A DNA stretch of 64,000 nucleotides from Candidatus Nitrosomirales archaeon. Lineage in GTDB: Archaea; Thermoproteota; Nitrososphaeria; Nitrososphaerales; UBA213. Made by a program: the position numbers and the translations under genes. The notes below the pieces were generated by a model. That model searched no databases. It was not told the DNA's origin and worked only from the letters and a program-made list of their open reading frames with translations. Below are positions 1-5,376 of the stretch, one piece after another. The DNA is taken from positions 46,778 to 110,777 of the forward strand of contig JBMCYV010000001.1 of the NCBI GenBank assembly GCA_049199595.1, written 5' to 3'. Each line of letters begins with the position of its first letter. Within the stretch, counting starts at the first letter, position 1.

Positions 1-259
1 CTCTTCTCAGATATACAATAACATCGGCAGCACTCTCCCCTACTGGAGCTTTCATACAAACATCGGAATTCTTTATTGCCTGGAAACTATGATCTGGTAA
101 TGCCTTACCAGTTTTCTTTACGCTTGAATCTCCTGCCTCGATGTCTATAATGTCGAACTTCACATCATACTTGTCATGGATTAAAGTTAGAACGGATCGT
201 GTTGCTTTTGATATTTCCGGACCTATGCCATCTCCTAGAATAAGTGCTAATCTATACAT
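1..259 (-). CDS. leuB: 3-isopropylmalate/isocitrate dehydrogenase family, 5' part (runs off the window start)
   Basis: Read manually: MYRLALILGDGIGPEIS. The GDGIGPE motif marks this family, and the gene directly follows leuA. Confidence 0.85.
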   Translation of the reverse strand, partial: MYRLALILGDGIGPEISKATRSVLTLIHDKYDVKFDIIDIEAGDSSVKKTGKALPDHSFQAIKNSDVCMKAPVGESAADVIVYLRR

Positions 260-260
260 C

Positions 261-1790
261 TTAAACCGTGTATTTCCGTAATTCCGTATCTTTATCTGTT
301 GTTCTTTTGAGCATAATCCTGTTCAGGCCATTGATCATTGCCTGAACACTCGCAATTACTATGTCTTCACCAGCTGCTCTTGCAGTTGAAACGTTGCCAT
401 ACTTGTCCTCAACCTTTATACTAACTTCTGCCAACGCATCAGATCCGCCAGTTATCGCCTCTAACCTGAATTCTCTTAACTTCACACTGGCAAGTTCGTT
501 TGTGATCTTCTGTATTGCATTTAGAGCAGCATCGACAGGCCCCAAACCAGTGTCAGCAGCGACGAACTCCTTCCCTTCAACAACCAAGCGCACAGATGCT
601 GTTGGTACAACATTCATTCCAGTCATTACACTAAAGTCGGTTAGCTTTACCTTCTCCTCTAGTCCCTCTTGGCGCATGATCTGCGATGCAATTGCCAACA
701 GATCCGCGTCTGTGATATGCTTACCCTTGTCTCCCAAATCTTTGATCTTATCAACGATCTCTCGCAACTGTTCCTGTGTTGGTTTCAAACCATATTCATC
801 GAGCATTGCTGAAACGCCATGTGCGCCAGCATGCTTGCCAGCTTCCAGCCATCGTTTCCTTCCAACAAGTTCTGGACTAATTGGTTCATATGTCAAAGGA
901 TTTGACAATACACCATGCGTATGGATTCCGGATTCGTGACCAAACGCATTCTCTCCAATGATTGCCTTGTTCGGTTGCACAACTATGCCAGATAAACTTG
1001 ATACTAGTCTAGAGGTTTCATAAAGCAACTCTGTTTTGATATGTGTTTTTCTGCCATACAAACAGTGTAAAGCCATCACAAATTCTTCCAAAGATGCATT
1101 GCCAGCTCTCTCTCCTAAACCGTTTATTGTAACATGGGCGCATGATGCACCTGCTTCAATACCAGCAATCGAGTTTGCAACCGCCAGCCCAAAGTCATCA
1201 TGGCAGTGCATGCTTATCGGAACATTTACTGTCGATCTTAATTCCCTGATCAAACTGTCAATATACTTTGGATGCGAGTAGCCTACAGTATCGGGAACAT
1301 CGATCCTGTCTGCACCAGCATCTACAACTGCTTTATAGACCTGCTTGAGAAACTCCCTGTCTGTTCTCGTGGCATCCTCTGCCGAAAACTCAACATAGAG
1401 TCCATGCGACTTGCCGTATTCCACTGCCTCAACAGCTTTGCGCAATGCCTCTTCCCTAGAGATCTTCAGCTTGTACTGCAGATGAATGTCAGACGTTGCG
1501 ATGAACGTATGGACATACTTCAGATCACAGTTGATGACAGCATCAATGTCGCGCTTTTCAGCCCTTGCAAGTCCAGCTATCTCAGAGGGAAGCCCTTGTT
1601 TTGCAATTTCCTTGATCGCATCAATCTCTCCTTGAGACACTATCGGGAAACCTGCTTCTATGACATCAACTCCCAGCTTGCTTAGCTGAACTGCTATCTT
1701 CACCTTGTTACTTGGAGTGAGAGTAACCCCTGGAGTTTGCTCACCGTCTCTTAAAGTAGTATCGTAAATCCTAACATACTCCTCAGTCAT
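261..1790 (-). CDS. leuA: 2-isopropylmalate synthase (LeuA/CimA family)
   Basis: DTTLRDGEQ, HCHDDFG and GERAGNA motifs plus a C-terminal regulatory domain. Likely start is MTEEY at 1790. Confidence 0.9.
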   Translation of the reverse strand: MTEEYVRIYDTTLRDGEQTPGVTLTPSNKVKIAVQLSKLGVDVIEAGFPIVSQGEIDAIKEIAKQGLPSEIAGLARAEKRDIDAVINCDLKYVHTFIATSDIHLQYKLKISREEALRKAVEAVEYGKSHGLYVEFSAEDATRTDREFLKQVYKAVVDAGADRIDVPDTVGYSHPKYIDSLIRELRSTVNVPISMHCHDDFGLAVANSIAGIEAGASCAHVTINGLGERAGNASLEEFVMALHCLYGRKTHIKTELLYETSRLVSSLSGIVVQPNKAIIGENAFGHESGIHTHGVLSNPLTYEPISPELVGRKRWLEAGKHAGAHGVSAMLDEYGLKPTQEQLREIVDKIKDLGDKGKHITDADLLAIASQIMRQEGLEEKVKLTDFSVMTGMNVVPTASVRLVVEGKEFVAADTGLGPVDAALNAIQKITNELASVKLREFRLEAITGGSDALAEVSIKVEDKYGNVSTARAAGEDIVIASVQAMINGLNRIMLKRTTDKDTELRKYTV

Positions 1791-2274
1791 TAAACGCACC
1801 TCTTGGCAATGCAGAGACTCCGGTTCTCGCCAGCTGTATGACACCATAATGTTCGACTAGTGCCTTGAAGGCGTCTATCTTGTCCGGCGTGTCAGTTATC
1901 TCGACCATTATAGATCCCTTGCTTGTATCAACAACTTTTCCTCCAAAATTATTTGCAAGATTTACTATCTCCGTCTTAGATGTAGGATCTGCAGCTTTTA
2001 ACTTTATCAATGCGAGTTCCCTGTAAACTGTCTGGTCTGTAGCAAGCCTTGTTACTTCAACGACATCGATGAGTTTTCGTAACTGCTTTACCAACTGCTC
2101 CGTAACATTTTCGTCGCTCTCTATTGTAACGGTGATCCTTGAAAGATCCTTATCCTCCGTAGGTCCTACCGACAAACTTTCGATGTTAAAACTTCTTGCT
2201 CTAAACATGTTCGAAACTCTGAAGAGCACTCCTGGTTTGTTTTCTACCAGTGCAGAAATAATATTCCAACCCAT
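1783..2274 (-). CDS. ilvN: Acetolactate synthase small (regulatory) subunit
   Basis: ACT domain VENKPGVLFRV..FRARSFNIESLSVG, downstream of ilvB. Confidence 0.95.
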   Translation of the reverse strand: MGWNIISALVENKPGVLFRVSNMFRARSFNIESLSVGPTEDKDLSRITVTIESDENVTEQLVKQLRKLIDVVEVTRLATDQTVYRELALIKLKAADPTSKTEIVNLANNFGGKVVDTSKGSIMVEITDTPDKIDAFKALVEHYGVIQLARTGVSALPRGAFND

Positions 2275-2282
2275 GTTCTCAC

Positions 2283-3971
2283 CTATCCAGCCACGATCAT
2301 GTCCTTCAGTCCCGTTCCAGGAGCCACAAATGGATATACATCTTCTTCAGGATCTATCAGAATGTCAATTACAGTTGCGACATCGCTCTTCAATGCTACC
2401 TTTATTGCTTTATCAAGTTCATCCATGGACTGCGCTCTTATGCCCTGAGCACCGTAAGCGTCAGCAAGTTTCACGAAATCTGGCGTTGCCTTTAGATCGA
2501 TACCCATGTAGCGCCTGTTGTAGAAGAGTCTCTGCCACTGAGCTACCATGCCCAATGAGTAGTTGTTCATCAGGAAGACTATGACTGGAAGGTTGTCTTG
2601 CACAGAAACTGCCAGCGAGTTTTCTGTCATATTGAAACTGCCATCGCCTGCAATATCTACAACATGAACATCCGGTTTCGCAGCCTTTGCTCCTATTGAA
2701 GCGGGAAAGCCAAAGCCCATCGTTCCTAAACCTGTCGAGCTGAAGAATGTCCCTGGTTGAATGATATCAAAGTGTAGCGAGGCCCACATCTGGCACTGTC
2801 CAACCTCTGTAGTAACAATGGATTCAGGAGGGAGCAATTCTCTCAATTTCTTGAGTGACTTTCTGGCCGTTATATCTCTCGATGCATCTTTAATCGAGCT
2901 CTGGTAATATTCTCTAATTTCCTTGATATGTTTGAACCATGATGTCTCTTGCTCCTTCTTCGCAATCCTCTTAGCCAGCATTTTTACCAATGCCCTAAGC
3001 GATGCCTTGACATCTCCAACTAGCGGAACATCAACTGTCTTGTTCTTTCCAATCTCAGCTGGATCTATGTCTATGTGAATTATCTTCATCCTTTGACCGA
3101 ACTCATCAAACTTGCCAACAGATCTGTCTGAGAACCTTGCTCCTATTGCCAGAAGGACATCTGACTCGATTATCAACTTGTTAGCTTCAGCATGTCCGTG
3201 CATACCGATTGGGCCAAGAGCCAAGGGATGATTTTCTGGAAACGCGCCCTTGCCCTTGAAAGTGGTAACCACTGGTATCATTAACAGTTCTGCTAAAGCC
3301 TGAAGTTCCGGAAATGCACTAGAAATATGCACCCCTCCTCCAGCCATTATCATGGGTCTTTCTGCATTGAGTAACAGTTCTACTGCTTCACCCATTTTTG
3401 AAATATCAGGATCAACGAGTGGAGAATAGCCTCTTATCTTGACAAACTCTGGAAAACTAACATCCTTAACCTCTTGCTGCACGTCTTTGGGAATATCAAC
3501 TAACACTGGACCTGGTCTTCCACTTTCAGCAATGTAAAACGCTTTCTTTATGGTTTCTGGAATTTCTGTAGCTGATCTTGGTTGGAAGCAGTATTTTGTT
3601 ATCGACGCACAAATGCCAACTATATCGCACTCCTGAAAAGCATCCCTCCCGATCATTGCTTTTGGCACCTGACCAGTTACAGCTACCACCGGTGCAGAGT
3701 CCATGTAAGCAGTTGCTATTCCAGTAACAAGGTTAGTTGCTCCCGGTCCGGAAGTTGCAAAACAAACTCCAGGTTTACGTTTTATTCTGCCATAACCATC
3801 TGCCATGTGTGCAGCTGATTGTTCATGTCTAACCAAGATATGTCTGATATTGCTTGAATAAAGTTCGTCATACATTGGTAGATTAGCACCTCCGGGCATG
3901 CCGAAGACAATGTCTACGCCCTCCTTCTCTAGAGCATGCATCAACGCCTTAGAACCAGATAGTTCGACCAT
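2283..3971 (-). CDS. ilvB: Acetolactate synthase large subunit
   Basis: RHEQSAAHMADGY, TSGPGATN and GDGSFNM TPP-binding motifs. Confidence 0.95.
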   Translation of the reverse strand: MVELSGSKALMHALEKEGVDIVFGMPGGANLPMYDELYSSNIRHILVRHEQSAAHMADGYGRIKRKPGVCFATSGPGATNLVTGIATAYMDSAPVVAVTGQVPKAMIGRDAFQECDIVGICASITKYCFQPRSATEIPETIKKAFYIAESGRPGPVLVDIPKDVQQEVKDVSFPEFVKIRGYSPLVDPDISKMGEAVELLLNAERPMIMAGGGVHISSAFPELQALAELLMIPVVTTFKGKGAFPENHPLALGPIGMHGHAEANKLIIESDVLLAIGARFSDRSVGKFDEFGQRMKIIHIDIDPAEIGKNKTVDVPLVGDVKASLRALVKMLAKRIAKKEQETSWFKHIKEIREYYQSSIKDASRDITARKSLKKLRELLPPESIVTTEVGQCQMWASLHFDIIQPGTFFSSTGLGTMGFGFPASIGAKAAKPDVHVVDIAGDGSFNMTENSLAVSVQDNLPVIVFLMNNYSLGMVAQWQRLFYNRRYMGIDLKATPDFVKLADAYGAQGIRAQSMDELDKAIKVALKSDVATVIDILIDPEEDVYPFVAPGTGLKDMIVAG

Positions 3972-3985
3972 TTTTTATCACCAAC

Positions 3986-4013
3986 AAACCCTGCACGAGA
4001 AACTGCAGGATTT
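3986..4013 (-). promoter_or_regulatory. 10-bp hairpin between the leader peptide and the ilvB ribosome-binding site (candidate attenuator)
   Basis: Minus strand AAAUCCUGCA-GUUUCUCG-UGCAGGGUUU, followed by GUUGGUGA (Shine-Dalgarno-like) and the ilvB AUG. Confidence 0.6.
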
Positions 4014-4077
4014 AATCTAGCAAGACAACTAGCAAAAGCAGTTCTACAAGGCTAGTTGTGTTGCCGTGTTCATTCAT
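4012..4077 (-). CDS. Putative ilvB leader peptide, 21 aa, MNEHGNTTSLVELLLLVVLLD
   Basis: Read manually. 7 Leu and 3 Val in the last 12 codons, located upstream of a branched-chain amino acid operon, with a TATA-like element ~24 nt upstream of the ATG. Confidence 0.7.
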   Translation of the reverse strand: MNEHGNTTSLVELLLLVVLLD

Positions 4078-4100
4078 ACGAGTCAGGTATGCATACTCCG

Positions 4101-4113
4101 TATAATTATAAAT
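4101..4113. promoter_or_regulatory. Bidirectional TATA-like element (TATAATTATAAAT)
   Basis: About 25 nt from both the leader-peptide ATG (minus strand) and the 4140 start (plus strand). Confidence 0.5.
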
Positions 4114-4139
4114 ATTTTGCCCCTCTATCATGAGTCACT

Positions 4140-4550
4140 TTGTCAGAAAGCGATGAGTCGCTCATTGAAAAGACAGTCTACAGGGCATTTGAGATAGGGA
4201 AGAGTAAGGATTTGCAATCTATACAGAGTATGCACTATAATGACAAACGGTTCTCAAAGTTTGGAGACACACCTCCGTATATGAGAATGGACTTCAATGA
4301 TGCATGCATGCATGAGGAATTATATTTTGCAAGCGTTTCCGACTATGACTTTAAGATTGAGGATCTTAGAGTAGACATATTTGACGATGTTGCTATTGCA
4401 ACTTTCCTGATCGAACATACTGGAATGCTTGTAGATGATTACAGCTTTACGGGTCGAACGATGAGCGTCAAGTCCAGAGCGACAATGGTCTTCCAGAAAA
4501 AAGATTCACAGTGGTTAATAATACATGAACACTTTTCAAAAATTCCTTAG
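4140..4550 (+). CDS. NTF2/SnoaL-like (DUF4440-type) protein
   Basis: C-terminal RATMVFQKKDSQWLIIHEHFS is typical of the NTF2-like fold. Confidence 0.75.
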   Translation: MSESDESLIEKTVYRAFEIGKSKDLQSIQSMHYNDKRFSKFGDTPPYMRMDFNDACMHEELYFASVSDYDFKIEDLRVDIFDDVAIATFLIEHTGMLVDDYSFTGRTMSVKSRATMVFQKKDSQWLIIHEHFSKIP

Positions 4551-4569
4551 ATTGTAGTGATAGATACTG

Positions 4570-5376
4570 TTATCGCTCTATATCAATTACAGGTGACTCT
4601 TTCAGAGTATTAAACAATTCATACGCTTCTTTTACAGTTGCATTCTCGTGAACTATGTTTCGTACTGCTCTAATCATTGCCACTGGATGATCTGATTGCC
4701 AAATATTTCTACCCATGTCAACACCAACAGCTCCATGTTTTACAGAATTGTATGCAAGCTCCAGTGCTTCCAATTCGCTCGTCTTCTTTCCGCCAGCGAT
4801 GATTATCGGAACAGGACAACCTTCAACAACTTTTTCAAACTCTTCACAGTAGTAAGTTTTTACCATCTTCGCACCAAGTTCTGCCGCTACTCTGCACGAT
4901 AATGAAAGATAGCGAGCATCCCTTGCCATCTCTTTCCCAACAGCAGTGACTGCTAATACTGGAATGCCATATTTTTCACCTTCGTCAACAAGCTTTGAAA
5001 GATTTACAAGCGTTTGGTGCTCATGTGCTTCACCAACAAAGATTGAAAGAGCCAGAGCAGATACATTTAGTCTTATAGCTTCTTCAATAGAAGTTGTGAT
5101 AGATTCGTTAGAAAGATCCTGCCCAACAATACTGGTACCTCCTGATACTCTGAGAACGATAGGTATGTTAGCATTAGGATCTACAGATGAACGTAATACT
5201 CCTCTAGTAAGCATAAGAGAGTCAGCATAAGGAAGAAGTGGAGCAATAGTTTTTCTAGGATTCTCTAGTTTTTGTGTAGGTCCTAAAAAGTATCCATGAT
5301 CTACCGCAAGCATGACCGCACGACCAGTATCTGGTTTGATTATCTTTGCAATGCGGTTCTGCATTCCCCAGTCCAT
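4570..5376 (-). CDS. lsrF: LsrF-like class I aldolase/thiolase (DhnA family)
   Basis: MDWGMQNR N-terminus, AVDHGYFLGP, VKTYY Schiff-base Lys and DMGRNIWQ. Confidence 0.8.
   Translation of the reverse strand: MDWGMQNRIAKIIKPDTGRAVMLAVDHGYFLGPTQKLENPRKTIAPLLPYADSLMLTRGVLRSSVDPNANIPIVLRVSGGTSIVGQDLSNESITTSIEEAIRLNVSALALSIFVGEAHEHQTLVNLSKLVDEGEKYGIPVLAVTAVGKEMARDARYLSLSCRVAAELGAKMVKTYYCEEFEKVVEGCPVPIIIAGGKKTSELEALELAYNSVKHGAVGVDMGRNIWQSDHPVAMIRAVRNIVHENATVKEAYELFNTLKESPVIDIER

Follow-up and report, generated by a model that had tools for sequence, protein, structure and literature searches.

Leader open reading frame and promoter upstream of ilvB

We analysed the region upstream of ilvB, the first gene of an ilvB-ilvN-leuA-leuB operon, in a Candidatus Nitrosomirales archaeon (GenBank assembly GCA_049199595.1, contig JBMCYV010000001.1, positions 46,778 to 110,777 of the forward strand); this whole stretch of 64,000 nucleotides (nt) is called the window throughout. 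On its minus strand ilvB is preceded by a short open reading frame (ORF) which ends in a run of leucine and valine codons and abuts a predicted RNA hairpin. This ORF, a candidate leader peptide for the supply of branched-chain amino acids, is the subject of the present work. From promoter to first gene the following features were found:

4106..4120, minus strand: promoter, with a purine-rich GCAAAA resembling a B recognition element (4120-4115) and a TATA-like TTTATAA (4112-4106)
4077..4012, minus strand: leader ORF of 21 codons plus TAA, MNEHGNTTSLVELLLLVVLLD; ATG at 4077, TAA at 4014-4012
4019..4065, minus strand: hairpin 1 of the minimum-free-energy fold; 5' arm in codons 5-9, 3' arm in the Leu/Val run
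4018..4050, minus strand: putative regulatory run, codons 10-20, L V E L L L L V V L L
3985..4014, minus strand: hairpin 2, 11 pairs including two G-U; its 5' arm includes the stop codon
3983..3988, minus strand: weak U-rich stretch TTTGTT, partly within the 3' arm of hairpin 2
3982-3978, minus strand: Shine-Dalgarno-like GGTGA, 6 nt before the ilvB ATG (3971)
2283..3971, minus strand: ilvB, acetolactate synthase large subunit, first operon gene (Pfam; TIGR00118)

The identity of ilvB is well supported, the protein scoring 728 bits against TIGR00118 at a cut-off of 538. The codons of the run read CTT GTA GAA CTG CTT TTG CTA GTT GTC TTG CTA, and leucine or valine accounts for 10 of the last 12 sense codons of the leader ORF. 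An earlier note on this DNA (hereafter the original prediction) had described this ORF with its 10 Leu/Val codons as well as the GGUGA site before ilvB, and both are read directly in the sequence; motifs comparable to the latter (GGAGG/GGTGA) lie ahead of ilvB in the relatives. A longer in-frame start at 4131 (MIEGQ...) was rejected, as it would take in the TATA box and is not kept in the related loci L002-L009.

Archaeal TATA boxes lie about 26 nt before the transcription start. The TATA-like box named in the original prediction is present, and its distance had to be corrected from about 24 to 28 nt between the end of the box and the leader ATG. The string GCAAAATATTTATAATTAT is kept in five loci of the window's own family (L002-L005 and L007). 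Identical sequences were collapsed for the counts of promoter boxes in distinct leaders, of ORF and stop-codon folds, U tracts in spacers, codons and tails, and accessibility. In 82 of 106 distinct leaders the in-frame ATG is preceded by a [TC]TTA[TA][TA]A box, the end of which lies 24-33 nt away (median 28). In the window's genome the distances of such boxes from gene starts peak at similar values: of 197 boxes in upstream regions free of genes, 77 have their end 20-29 nt ahead of the ATG. A Shine-Dalgarno-like word precedes only 124 of the 1217 genes with free upstream DNA. Leaderless mRNAs thus seem to be common in this genome, and since the TATA spacing of the leader is typical for leaderless genes, the leader ORF itself is probably leaderless or carries a 5' untranslated region (UTR) of a few nt.

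No known family was recognised in the leader. Three leader peptides matched 0 families in NCBIfam and Pfam at E values up to 10, and at the same limit Rfam gave no match in the leader; two weak Rfam matches lie elsewhere in the window (4433-4566 and 4861-4907). The exact leader peptide and others that were looked up (7 of 7) are absent from about 15 billion predicted proteins. Gene calling passes over small ORFs of this type, which could be added to annotations.

Conservation of the leader in related genomes

To quantify the run we used a tail score, the number of Leu, Val and Ile residues in the last 12 codons of a stop-to-stop frame whose end lies no more than 150 nt ahead of a gene. Applied to 1669 upstream regions of the window's genome, the score reaches 10 for the ilvB region alone; one other region scores 9 and twelve score 8. 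Orthologues of ilvB with their flanks were then scored in the same way in related genomes, all of them Thermoproteota. Conservation of the ORF and its run, which the original prediction had named as its own test, was found within the order: 22 of 30 loci from 20 sampled families score at least 8, whereas of the 60 loci taken from the phylum's other classes only 2 do so. This outcome speaks strongly for the interpretation as a leader peptide. Four further loci of the order contributed two more at this level. Regarding other orders of the same class, a score of at least 8 is reached by all 8 loci of family f24, 7 of 8 loci of f25 (8/8 at ≥7), 1/2 in f21 and 1/1 in f29; in the AT-rich family f26 it is reached by 1 of 14, and by neither of the single loci from f27 and f28. 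The two matches in other classes are a distant frame of 7 residues and an ambiguous case in family f48, with a strong hairpin and no ATG.

Under a stricter rule, an ATG-initiated ORF of 12-50 amino acids with a score of at least 8, the element is present at 7 of 9 loci in the window's family and 16 of 25 in the rest of the order. The named ammonia-oxidiser loci gave 36/78 (51/78 at ≥7), further Nitrosopumilaceae-type loci 12/26, other orders of the class 16/35 and other classes 1/60. Loci with no in-frame ATG, such as L152, fall out of these ATG-based counts, and L093 and L100 (too little upstream DNA) as well as L176-L189 were left out of the counts. Counted by family, about 14 of the 18 families of the order in which an ilvB orthologue was examined carry the element, as do 4 of 7 families from other orders.

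All nine loci of the window's family encode a recognisably homologous peptide (e.g. MLNTYSETTGTHVDLLLLVVLLD). Distant families have unrelated peptides with the same kind of ending, for example ...VQLVLLLVS, ...SLILVIILLL and ...VLPLVVLL, and the N-terminal half of the leader is not conserved between families. Within a survey of eighty named public loci, leader peptides were found in Nitrosotalea devanaterra (MTKVDSTSISSILLQVELVL, L085), Nitrosopumilus sp. (MNKSTDKTALFLLVVLL), Nitrosarchaeum sp. (MSATTTGTLGILLLVDLVL) and Nitrososphaera (MPRADSEHWHKVHVLVLLRLA), and the element also occurs in metagenome-assembled genomes of Nitrosotenuis and Nitrosopelagicus. Cultured lineages with the element are Nitrosotalea devanaterra (L085), Nitrosopumilus sp. 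(L082) and Nitrosarchaeum sp. (L109). On the strength of this sequence comparison the leader ORF is a real, conserved and specific element and not a product of chance.

Several loci deviate from this pattern. Though they lie inside the order, L010-L012 (family f8) and the Nitrosocosmicus-type loci L014, L069-L075 and L081 have no convincing Leu/Val/Ile leader. At L010 a Met-rich frame (MMRMMMVCMIGLGL...) stands before ilvB instead, and the Nitrosocosmicus-type loci show a weak candidate, MGLIKT...KGFLLL, without a hairpin. In another class, the f48 loci L190 and L195 carry a very stable hairpin (AGCGCCTTAAG...CTTAAGGCGCT) before ilvB, directly after a Val/Ile-rich frame (...SLVIVVILK) which has no ATG and whose sole TTG start is too near the TATA box. 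The arrangement might be distantly related to the element or be what is left of it.

A crude scan of the window's genome for leaders of other amino acids (ATG ORFs of 6-45 residues at most 220 nt upstream of ORFs of at least 120 residues, single-residue counts in an 8-residue window) gave none that was convincing. The best threonine run, at L253:229-330 (G000:C18), is MIPMTTTTTVKILSN... (MIPMTTTTTVK...) with five consecutive Thr codons; it ends 39 nt before a gene of 228 amino acids, the protein sequence of which does not look like a biosynthetic enzyme.

Codon-level selection on the run

We anchored 98 distinct leaders at their stop codons and compared them codon by codon. The second codon position is T in 84-94% of leaders at codons -8 to -5, -3 and -2. 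Mean entropy is 1.10 bits at position 2; positions 1 and 3 are both near maximal, at 1.70 and 1.80 bits. The conserved run is compact and extends from about codon -8 to codon -1. Leu accounts for 447 of the 827 NTN codons, Val for 225 and Ile for 138, with Phe (7) and Met (10) nearly absent. In 90 distinct 12-residue tails the share of Leu, Val and Ile among the hydrophobic residues is 0.90, compared with 0.45 in 3363 hydrophobic 12-mers from proteins of the genome; as the tails were picked by their Leu/Val/Ile count this enrichment is circular, which does not apply to the periodicity and the exclusion of Phe and Met, each at 0.6% in these tails. Asp, Glu and Lys occur inside the runs, and the remaining tail positions are mostly Ser, Asp, Ala, Gly, Lys or Glu.

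The periodicity of T at position 2 together with the near-absence of Phe and Met argues for selection on codon identity: judged by these statistics, the run is under selection at the codon level for Leu, Val and Ile codons. Such a pattern is not expected from a membrane helix, a nucleotide motif or plain RNA structure.

RNA hairpins around the stop codon

RNAfold predicts a stable structure for the 126 nt from 4085 to 3960 (-36.9 kcal/mol, z = -2.78), and 3 of 200 shuffled sequences are as stable. In hairpin 1 the core ACAACTAGC (4059-4051) pairs with GCTAGTTGT (4033-4025), and RNAfold adds the pairing GGCAA/TTGCT, giving the layout GGCAA-C-ACAACTAGC ... GCTAGTTGT-C-TTGCT, which is kept in the family consensus. 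Hairpin 2 consists of the 5' arm TAAATCCTGCA (4014-4004), the loop GTTTCTCG (4003-3996) and the 3' arm TGCAGGGTTTG (3995-3985). Both stems had been recognised in the original prediction, as 9 bp inside the ORF and 10 bp over the stop codon; both are present in the fold, extended to 4065..4019 and to 11 pairs, respectively, and the U tract after the second is as weak as it had described (TTTGTT).

The place of hairpin 2 at the stop codon is constant, and its sequence is wholly different between families. Over the stretch from stop-9 to stop+45, 96 distinct leaders have a mean folding energy of -12.1 kcal/mol and a median z of -1.65, with z < -2 in 41/96; the onset of the structure is mostly found at -9 to 0, counted from the stop codon. 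Compensatory changes in the consensus fold support 4 pairs of hairpin 2 in the window's family f1, and 5 pairs in f25. In Nitrosopumilaceae-type loci the 5' arm is formed by the last codons (GTGCTGTAA) and the 3' arm by TACAGC, followed by TTTT and the Shine-Dalgarno sequence. Hairpin 1 is weaker and recurrent; in 104 distinct leaders the ORF folds with a median z of -1.38, and 34 of them fall below -2. T runs are over-represented in the spacers: T4 or longer was found in 51/96, twofold the 25.6 expected from shuffles. In the window's family T4 or longer occurs in 6 and T5 or longer in 5 of 7 distinct spacers. At gene ends of the window's genome there is almost no enrichment of hairpins or T runs.

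To examine the effect of a ribosome on these structures we folded the leaders of 19 loci from many families under constraint, moving a 30-nt mask from codon to codon; at L016, L034 and L109 the wrong helix was picked, which makes these three uninformative. At most of the other loci, hairpin 2 disappears only if the A site occupies one of the last 2-8 sense codons or the stop codon, and stalls further upstream leave it unchanged. Given that the conserved run occupies about codons -8 to -1, most of it is within reach of hairpin 2. Since the hairpin is lost there by direct coverage alone, no ribosome-dependent 2:3 antiterminator is predicted by mask folding, and the layout of a bacterial attenuator, which the original prediction had proposed, is not borne out in that form.

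The same prediction contained a 7-bp alternative pairing that would disrupt the hairpin. The pairing, GAACTGC (4044-4038) with GCAGTTT (4006-4000), is present in the window and is kept in 57/63 cells of family f1, compared with 27-56% for slid controls. Covariation does not stand out from shuffled alignments, as there is one compensatory change and 102 of 500 column shuffles do as well. The pairing lies under the footprint of a ribosome stalled in the run.

Predicted access to the ilvB start is little affected by a ribosome on the run. The mean unpaired probability of positions -14 to +3 of ilvB is 0.48 in the free RNA and 0.50 with a late stall; accessibility gains above 0.2 were obtained at 6/101 loci and gains above 0.3 in the Shine-Dalgarno core at 6/99. 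Translational control, to which the original prediction had resorted as a fallback, therefore finds no general support in predicted Shine-Dalgarno accessibility. In the consensus of family f25 (L144-L155) the last codons of the run (TCATTGTCGTG) pair with the ilvB Shine-Dalgarno region in 9 pairs which enclose hairpin 2, and this predicted fold may represent a translational version of the switch as a local variant. At L137-L140 (f24) the leader (e.g. MGTFEIVVNGPEYTICLLDVGILSIILIL) has a TAG or TAA stop codon which overlaps or abuts the Shine-Dalgarno sequence (TAGGAGGTG), 4-14 nt before ilvB, leaving no room for a hairpin; these loci too may be local variants acting on translation.

Downstream operon and neighbouring genes

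The remaining genes of the locus are:

2274..1783, minus strand: ilvN (Pfam)
1847..261, minus strand: leuA, longest frame (Pfam)
259..2, minus strand: start of leuB, which runs off the window (Pfam)
4140..4550, plus strand: divergent SnoaL-like gene (Pfam), starting about 60 nt upstream of the leader ATG

The gene order ilvB-ilvN-leuA is also found at the Nitrosotalea locus L085 and the Nitrososphaera locus L033. In its longest frame leuA overlaps the end of ilvN by 65 nt (1783-1847); the true leuA start may lie further downstream than 1847, because the Pfam domain begins only at residue 25. Between the leader and the divergent SnoaL-like gene there is one AT-rich TATA region (4101-4140), and as this single region is shared it may act as a bidirectional promoter for two leaderless transcripts. 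The same divergent gene adjoins the Nitrososphaera locus L033 (895-1305, minus strand).

A second acetolactate-synthase-like gene of the same genome (G000:C8:73138-74754, L251) reaches 364 bits, below the TIGR00118 cut-off, and is probably a paralogue with another role. Its upstream region scored below 9 in the genome-wide tail scan.

Proposed mechanism and alternative explanations

In the best explanation we can offer, with a probability of roughly 0.6, the element would be a leader peptide acting in cis, by which the supply of charged tRNA-Leu, tRNA-Val and tRNA-Ile is signalled to the ilvB-ilvN-leuA-leuB operon. The broader statement, that branched-chain amino acid supply is sensed by a ribosome on a leader acting in cis, appears likely on the sequence evidence. 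How the signal would be read out is less certain: premature transcription termination or pausing, as opposed to a post-transcriptional step, falls somewhat short of even odds in our estimate. The complete proposal is put forward only tentatively and is, on balance, rather doubtful. It holds that Nitrososphaeria, including ammonia oxidisers, might use true ribosome-mediated transcription attenuation, with a leaderless leader sensing charged tRNA-Leu, -Val and -Ile and a single occluded hairpin at the stop codon deciding on read-through into ilvB.

The proposed sequence of events is as follows. Judging from the TATA spacing, the transcript would start a few nt before the leader AUG, and the ribosome would load on the leaderless 5' end. 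The last approximately eight sense codons are nearly all Leu, Val or Ile and abut a stable hairpin at or a few nt from the stop codon. When branched-chain amino acids are scarce, the ribosome would dwell on the run and its front edge would cover the 5' arm of the hairpin; with the hairpin blocked, RNA polymerase would continue into ilvB. When they are plentiful, the ribosome would finish and leave, and the hairpin, often with a U-rich stretch, would form behind a polymerase still slowed on that stretch, so that the transcript would be ended or cut. The switch would then consist in direct occlusion of a single hairpin and not in a 1:2 / 2:3 / 3:4 competition as in enterobacterial attenuators, and direct occlusion is the simplest reading of the folding predictions.

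A number of points weigh against this explanation. The score thresholds were picked after the first data had been seen, and the counts of relatives are not independent samples, for which reason the count by family is the fairer one. Leaders are weak or absent in the Nitrosocosmicus-type loci, f8 and f26. Apart from the missing antiterminator, the RNAalifold consensus of 13 Nitrososphaera-type leaders contains a 7-pair helix alone and lacks the post-stop hairpin, because the alignment is rich in indels there; single-sequence folds of these leaders do show the hairpin. The U tract is inconsistent, with T5 or longer in only 16/96 spacers and TTTGTT in the window. Hairpins at 1065 gene ends of the genome have a mean energy of -6.6 kcal/mol compared with -6.3 for shuffled sequences, and 3.0% reach -14. 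A scan of 20 kb with sigma-70 and terminator consensus sequences yielded 14 hairpin/U sites where 13.5 were expected; it flags the leader hairpin on the opposite strand only. Hairpins are thus not the usual gene-end signal of this genome, and a role of hairpin 2 as terminator has to be assumed. The timing is also delicate. For E. coli it is reported that a translating ribosome represses a terminator located just a few bases beyond the stop codon (PMC4824070), so a closely coupled, unstalled ribosome might likewise cause read-through. For occlusion to work in the right direction, the polymerase would have to pause on the U-rich stretch for longer than an unstalled ribosome needs to terminate. 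As regards the polymerase, a review reports that archaeal RNA polymerase terminates in vitro at bacterial-like hairpin/U terminators, and that U tracts and aCPSF1/FttA are central to termination in archaea, with help from a hairpin only in some in vitro settings (PMC13675443).

The main rival keeps the same sensor and places its output after transcription, in mRNA cleavage or decay (e.g. by aCPSF1 at the U-rich site or a 5'-to-3' exonuclease) or in ilvB translation initiation. We consider it unlikely, with several observations on its side. Tight coupling of transcription and translation would be unnecessary and the timing problem avoided; the hairpins are not generic terminators in the window's genome, and an inconsistent U tract would be no obstacle. 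The pairing predicted for f25 and the stop codons of L137-L140 at the Shine-Dalgarno sequence also fit an effect on translation, and aCPSF1 recognises U tracts, its thaumarchaeal orthologue being functional in a heterologous test as described in the same review (PMC13675443). The translational variant is opposed by the nearly unchanged accessibility of the Shine-Dalgarno sequence and start (0.48 vs 0.50) with a ribosome on the run.

A conserved upstream ORF could alternatively have a general role that is independent of branched-chain supply, such as ribosome loading, a constitutive ilvB level or a minigene with its own end structure. Conservation of position, promoter spacing and hairpin would be expected on this account, and the crude scan found in the same genome no comparable leader for another single amino acid, and hence no general habit of this kind. 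It is improbable nonetheless, since it leaves unexplained why the run is confined to Leu, Val and Ile and avoids Phe and Met, the occurrence of the run only before the operon that makes these amino acids, and the fact that the run always ends at the hairpin. Least of all do we expect a functional small hydrophobic peptide co-expressed with the operon, for instance membrane-inserted or enzyme-bound: small hydrophobic proteins are common and often unannotated, and the C-terminal half is hydrophobic and conserved within families, but a run of about 8 residues into which Asp, Glu or Lys often intrude has neither the length nor the apolar character of a membrane helix. Residues typical of such helices (Ala, Gly, Phe, Met and Trp) are scarce or missing, families do not share the N-terminal half, and no Pfam or NCBIfam family matches.

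If a leader peptide sensing charged tRNA is the correct explanation, the fate of an archaeal mRNA, nascent or young, would be decided directly by a ribosome, which bears on the extent of archaeal transcription-translation coupling and on the effect of hairpins on the archaeal polymerase. For ammonia-oxidising archaea, which are globally abundant, major players in the nitrogen cycle and genetically hard to study, it would also be the first cis-regulatory logic to be put forward for the biosynthesis of amino acids. Should the output be transcription attenuation, it would follow that transcription and translation are functionally coupled in these archaea, that a eukaryote-like polymerase uses hairpin-dependent termination or pausing for regulation, and that amino acid attenuation arose independently of, or before, the bacterial systems. 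The proposed function is directly testable in the cultured strains that carry the element.

Comparison with known leader systems

Leader-peptide attenuation is a textbook bacterial mechanism. We found no archaeal leader-peptide attenuator in the full-text literature, a search that did not extend to subscription journals and supplementary files. The classical cases are enterobacterial ivbL, leuL and ilvL, where a short ORF with codons for the end products precedes a branched-chain operon and RNA hairpins lie between leader and first gene. The archaeal element shares with them the co-oriented short ORF, the run of end-product codons and the hairpins before the first gene. It differs from them in being archaeal, in the apparently leaderless ORF without a Shine-Dalgarno sequence of its own, in the location of the run at the very end of the ORF, in a hairpin that starts at the stop codon, in the lack of a predicted 2:3 antiterminator and in the inconsistent U tract. 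Unlike the described leaders it matches no leader family in Rfam, NCBIfam or Pfam.

Regarding the way in which the ribosome would act, other bacterial leaders are comparable. When a ribosome has reached the end of the leader ORF in E. coli pyrBI or pyrE, it covers the terminator hairpin, and in tnaC it covers a factor loading site; here too the outcome would be set by a ribosome at the ORF end that physically covers the RNA just beyond. These systems do not sense tRNA charging through a codon run; pyrBI and pyrE respond to nucleotides via polymerase pausing and tnaC to free tryptophan via the nascent peptide. In ermC and cat the Shine-Dalgarno sequence is buried in a second hairpin and released by stalling. 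A two-hairpin leader and a ribosome stalled in a short ORF would be common to both; in contrast to ermC and cat, a buried Shine-Dalgarno sequence is not generally predicted in the archaeal leaders, and pairing between run and Shine-Dalgarno sequence was seen only in f25.

Two further bacterial examples also precede ilv genes. The ilvD leader of S. aureus encodes a 26-residue peptide with its own ribosome binding site 9 nt upstream and has a terminator 52 nt after the stop codon with a predicted alternative antiterminator fold; its terminator-like stem-loop was found by comparative analysis and received mutational support later (PMC5794164). Like the archaeal element it is a conserved short peptide, with Ile/Leu codons, before an ilv-leu operon (PMC5794164); the archaeal hairpin differs in touching the stop codon, and no antiterminator was found for it. 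For the ilvBNC leader-peptide attenuators of Corynebacterium and other actinobacteria a model of competition between three hairpins is reported to have been proposed (PMC11857589, PMC1262725). These systems are bacterial; like the archaeal case they have a leader peptide before ilvB and several hairpins (PMC11857589, PMC1262725). Set beside them, and as far as the sequences allow, the most fitting interpretation of the archaeal element is a branched-chain leader peptide whose architecture is new and simpler.

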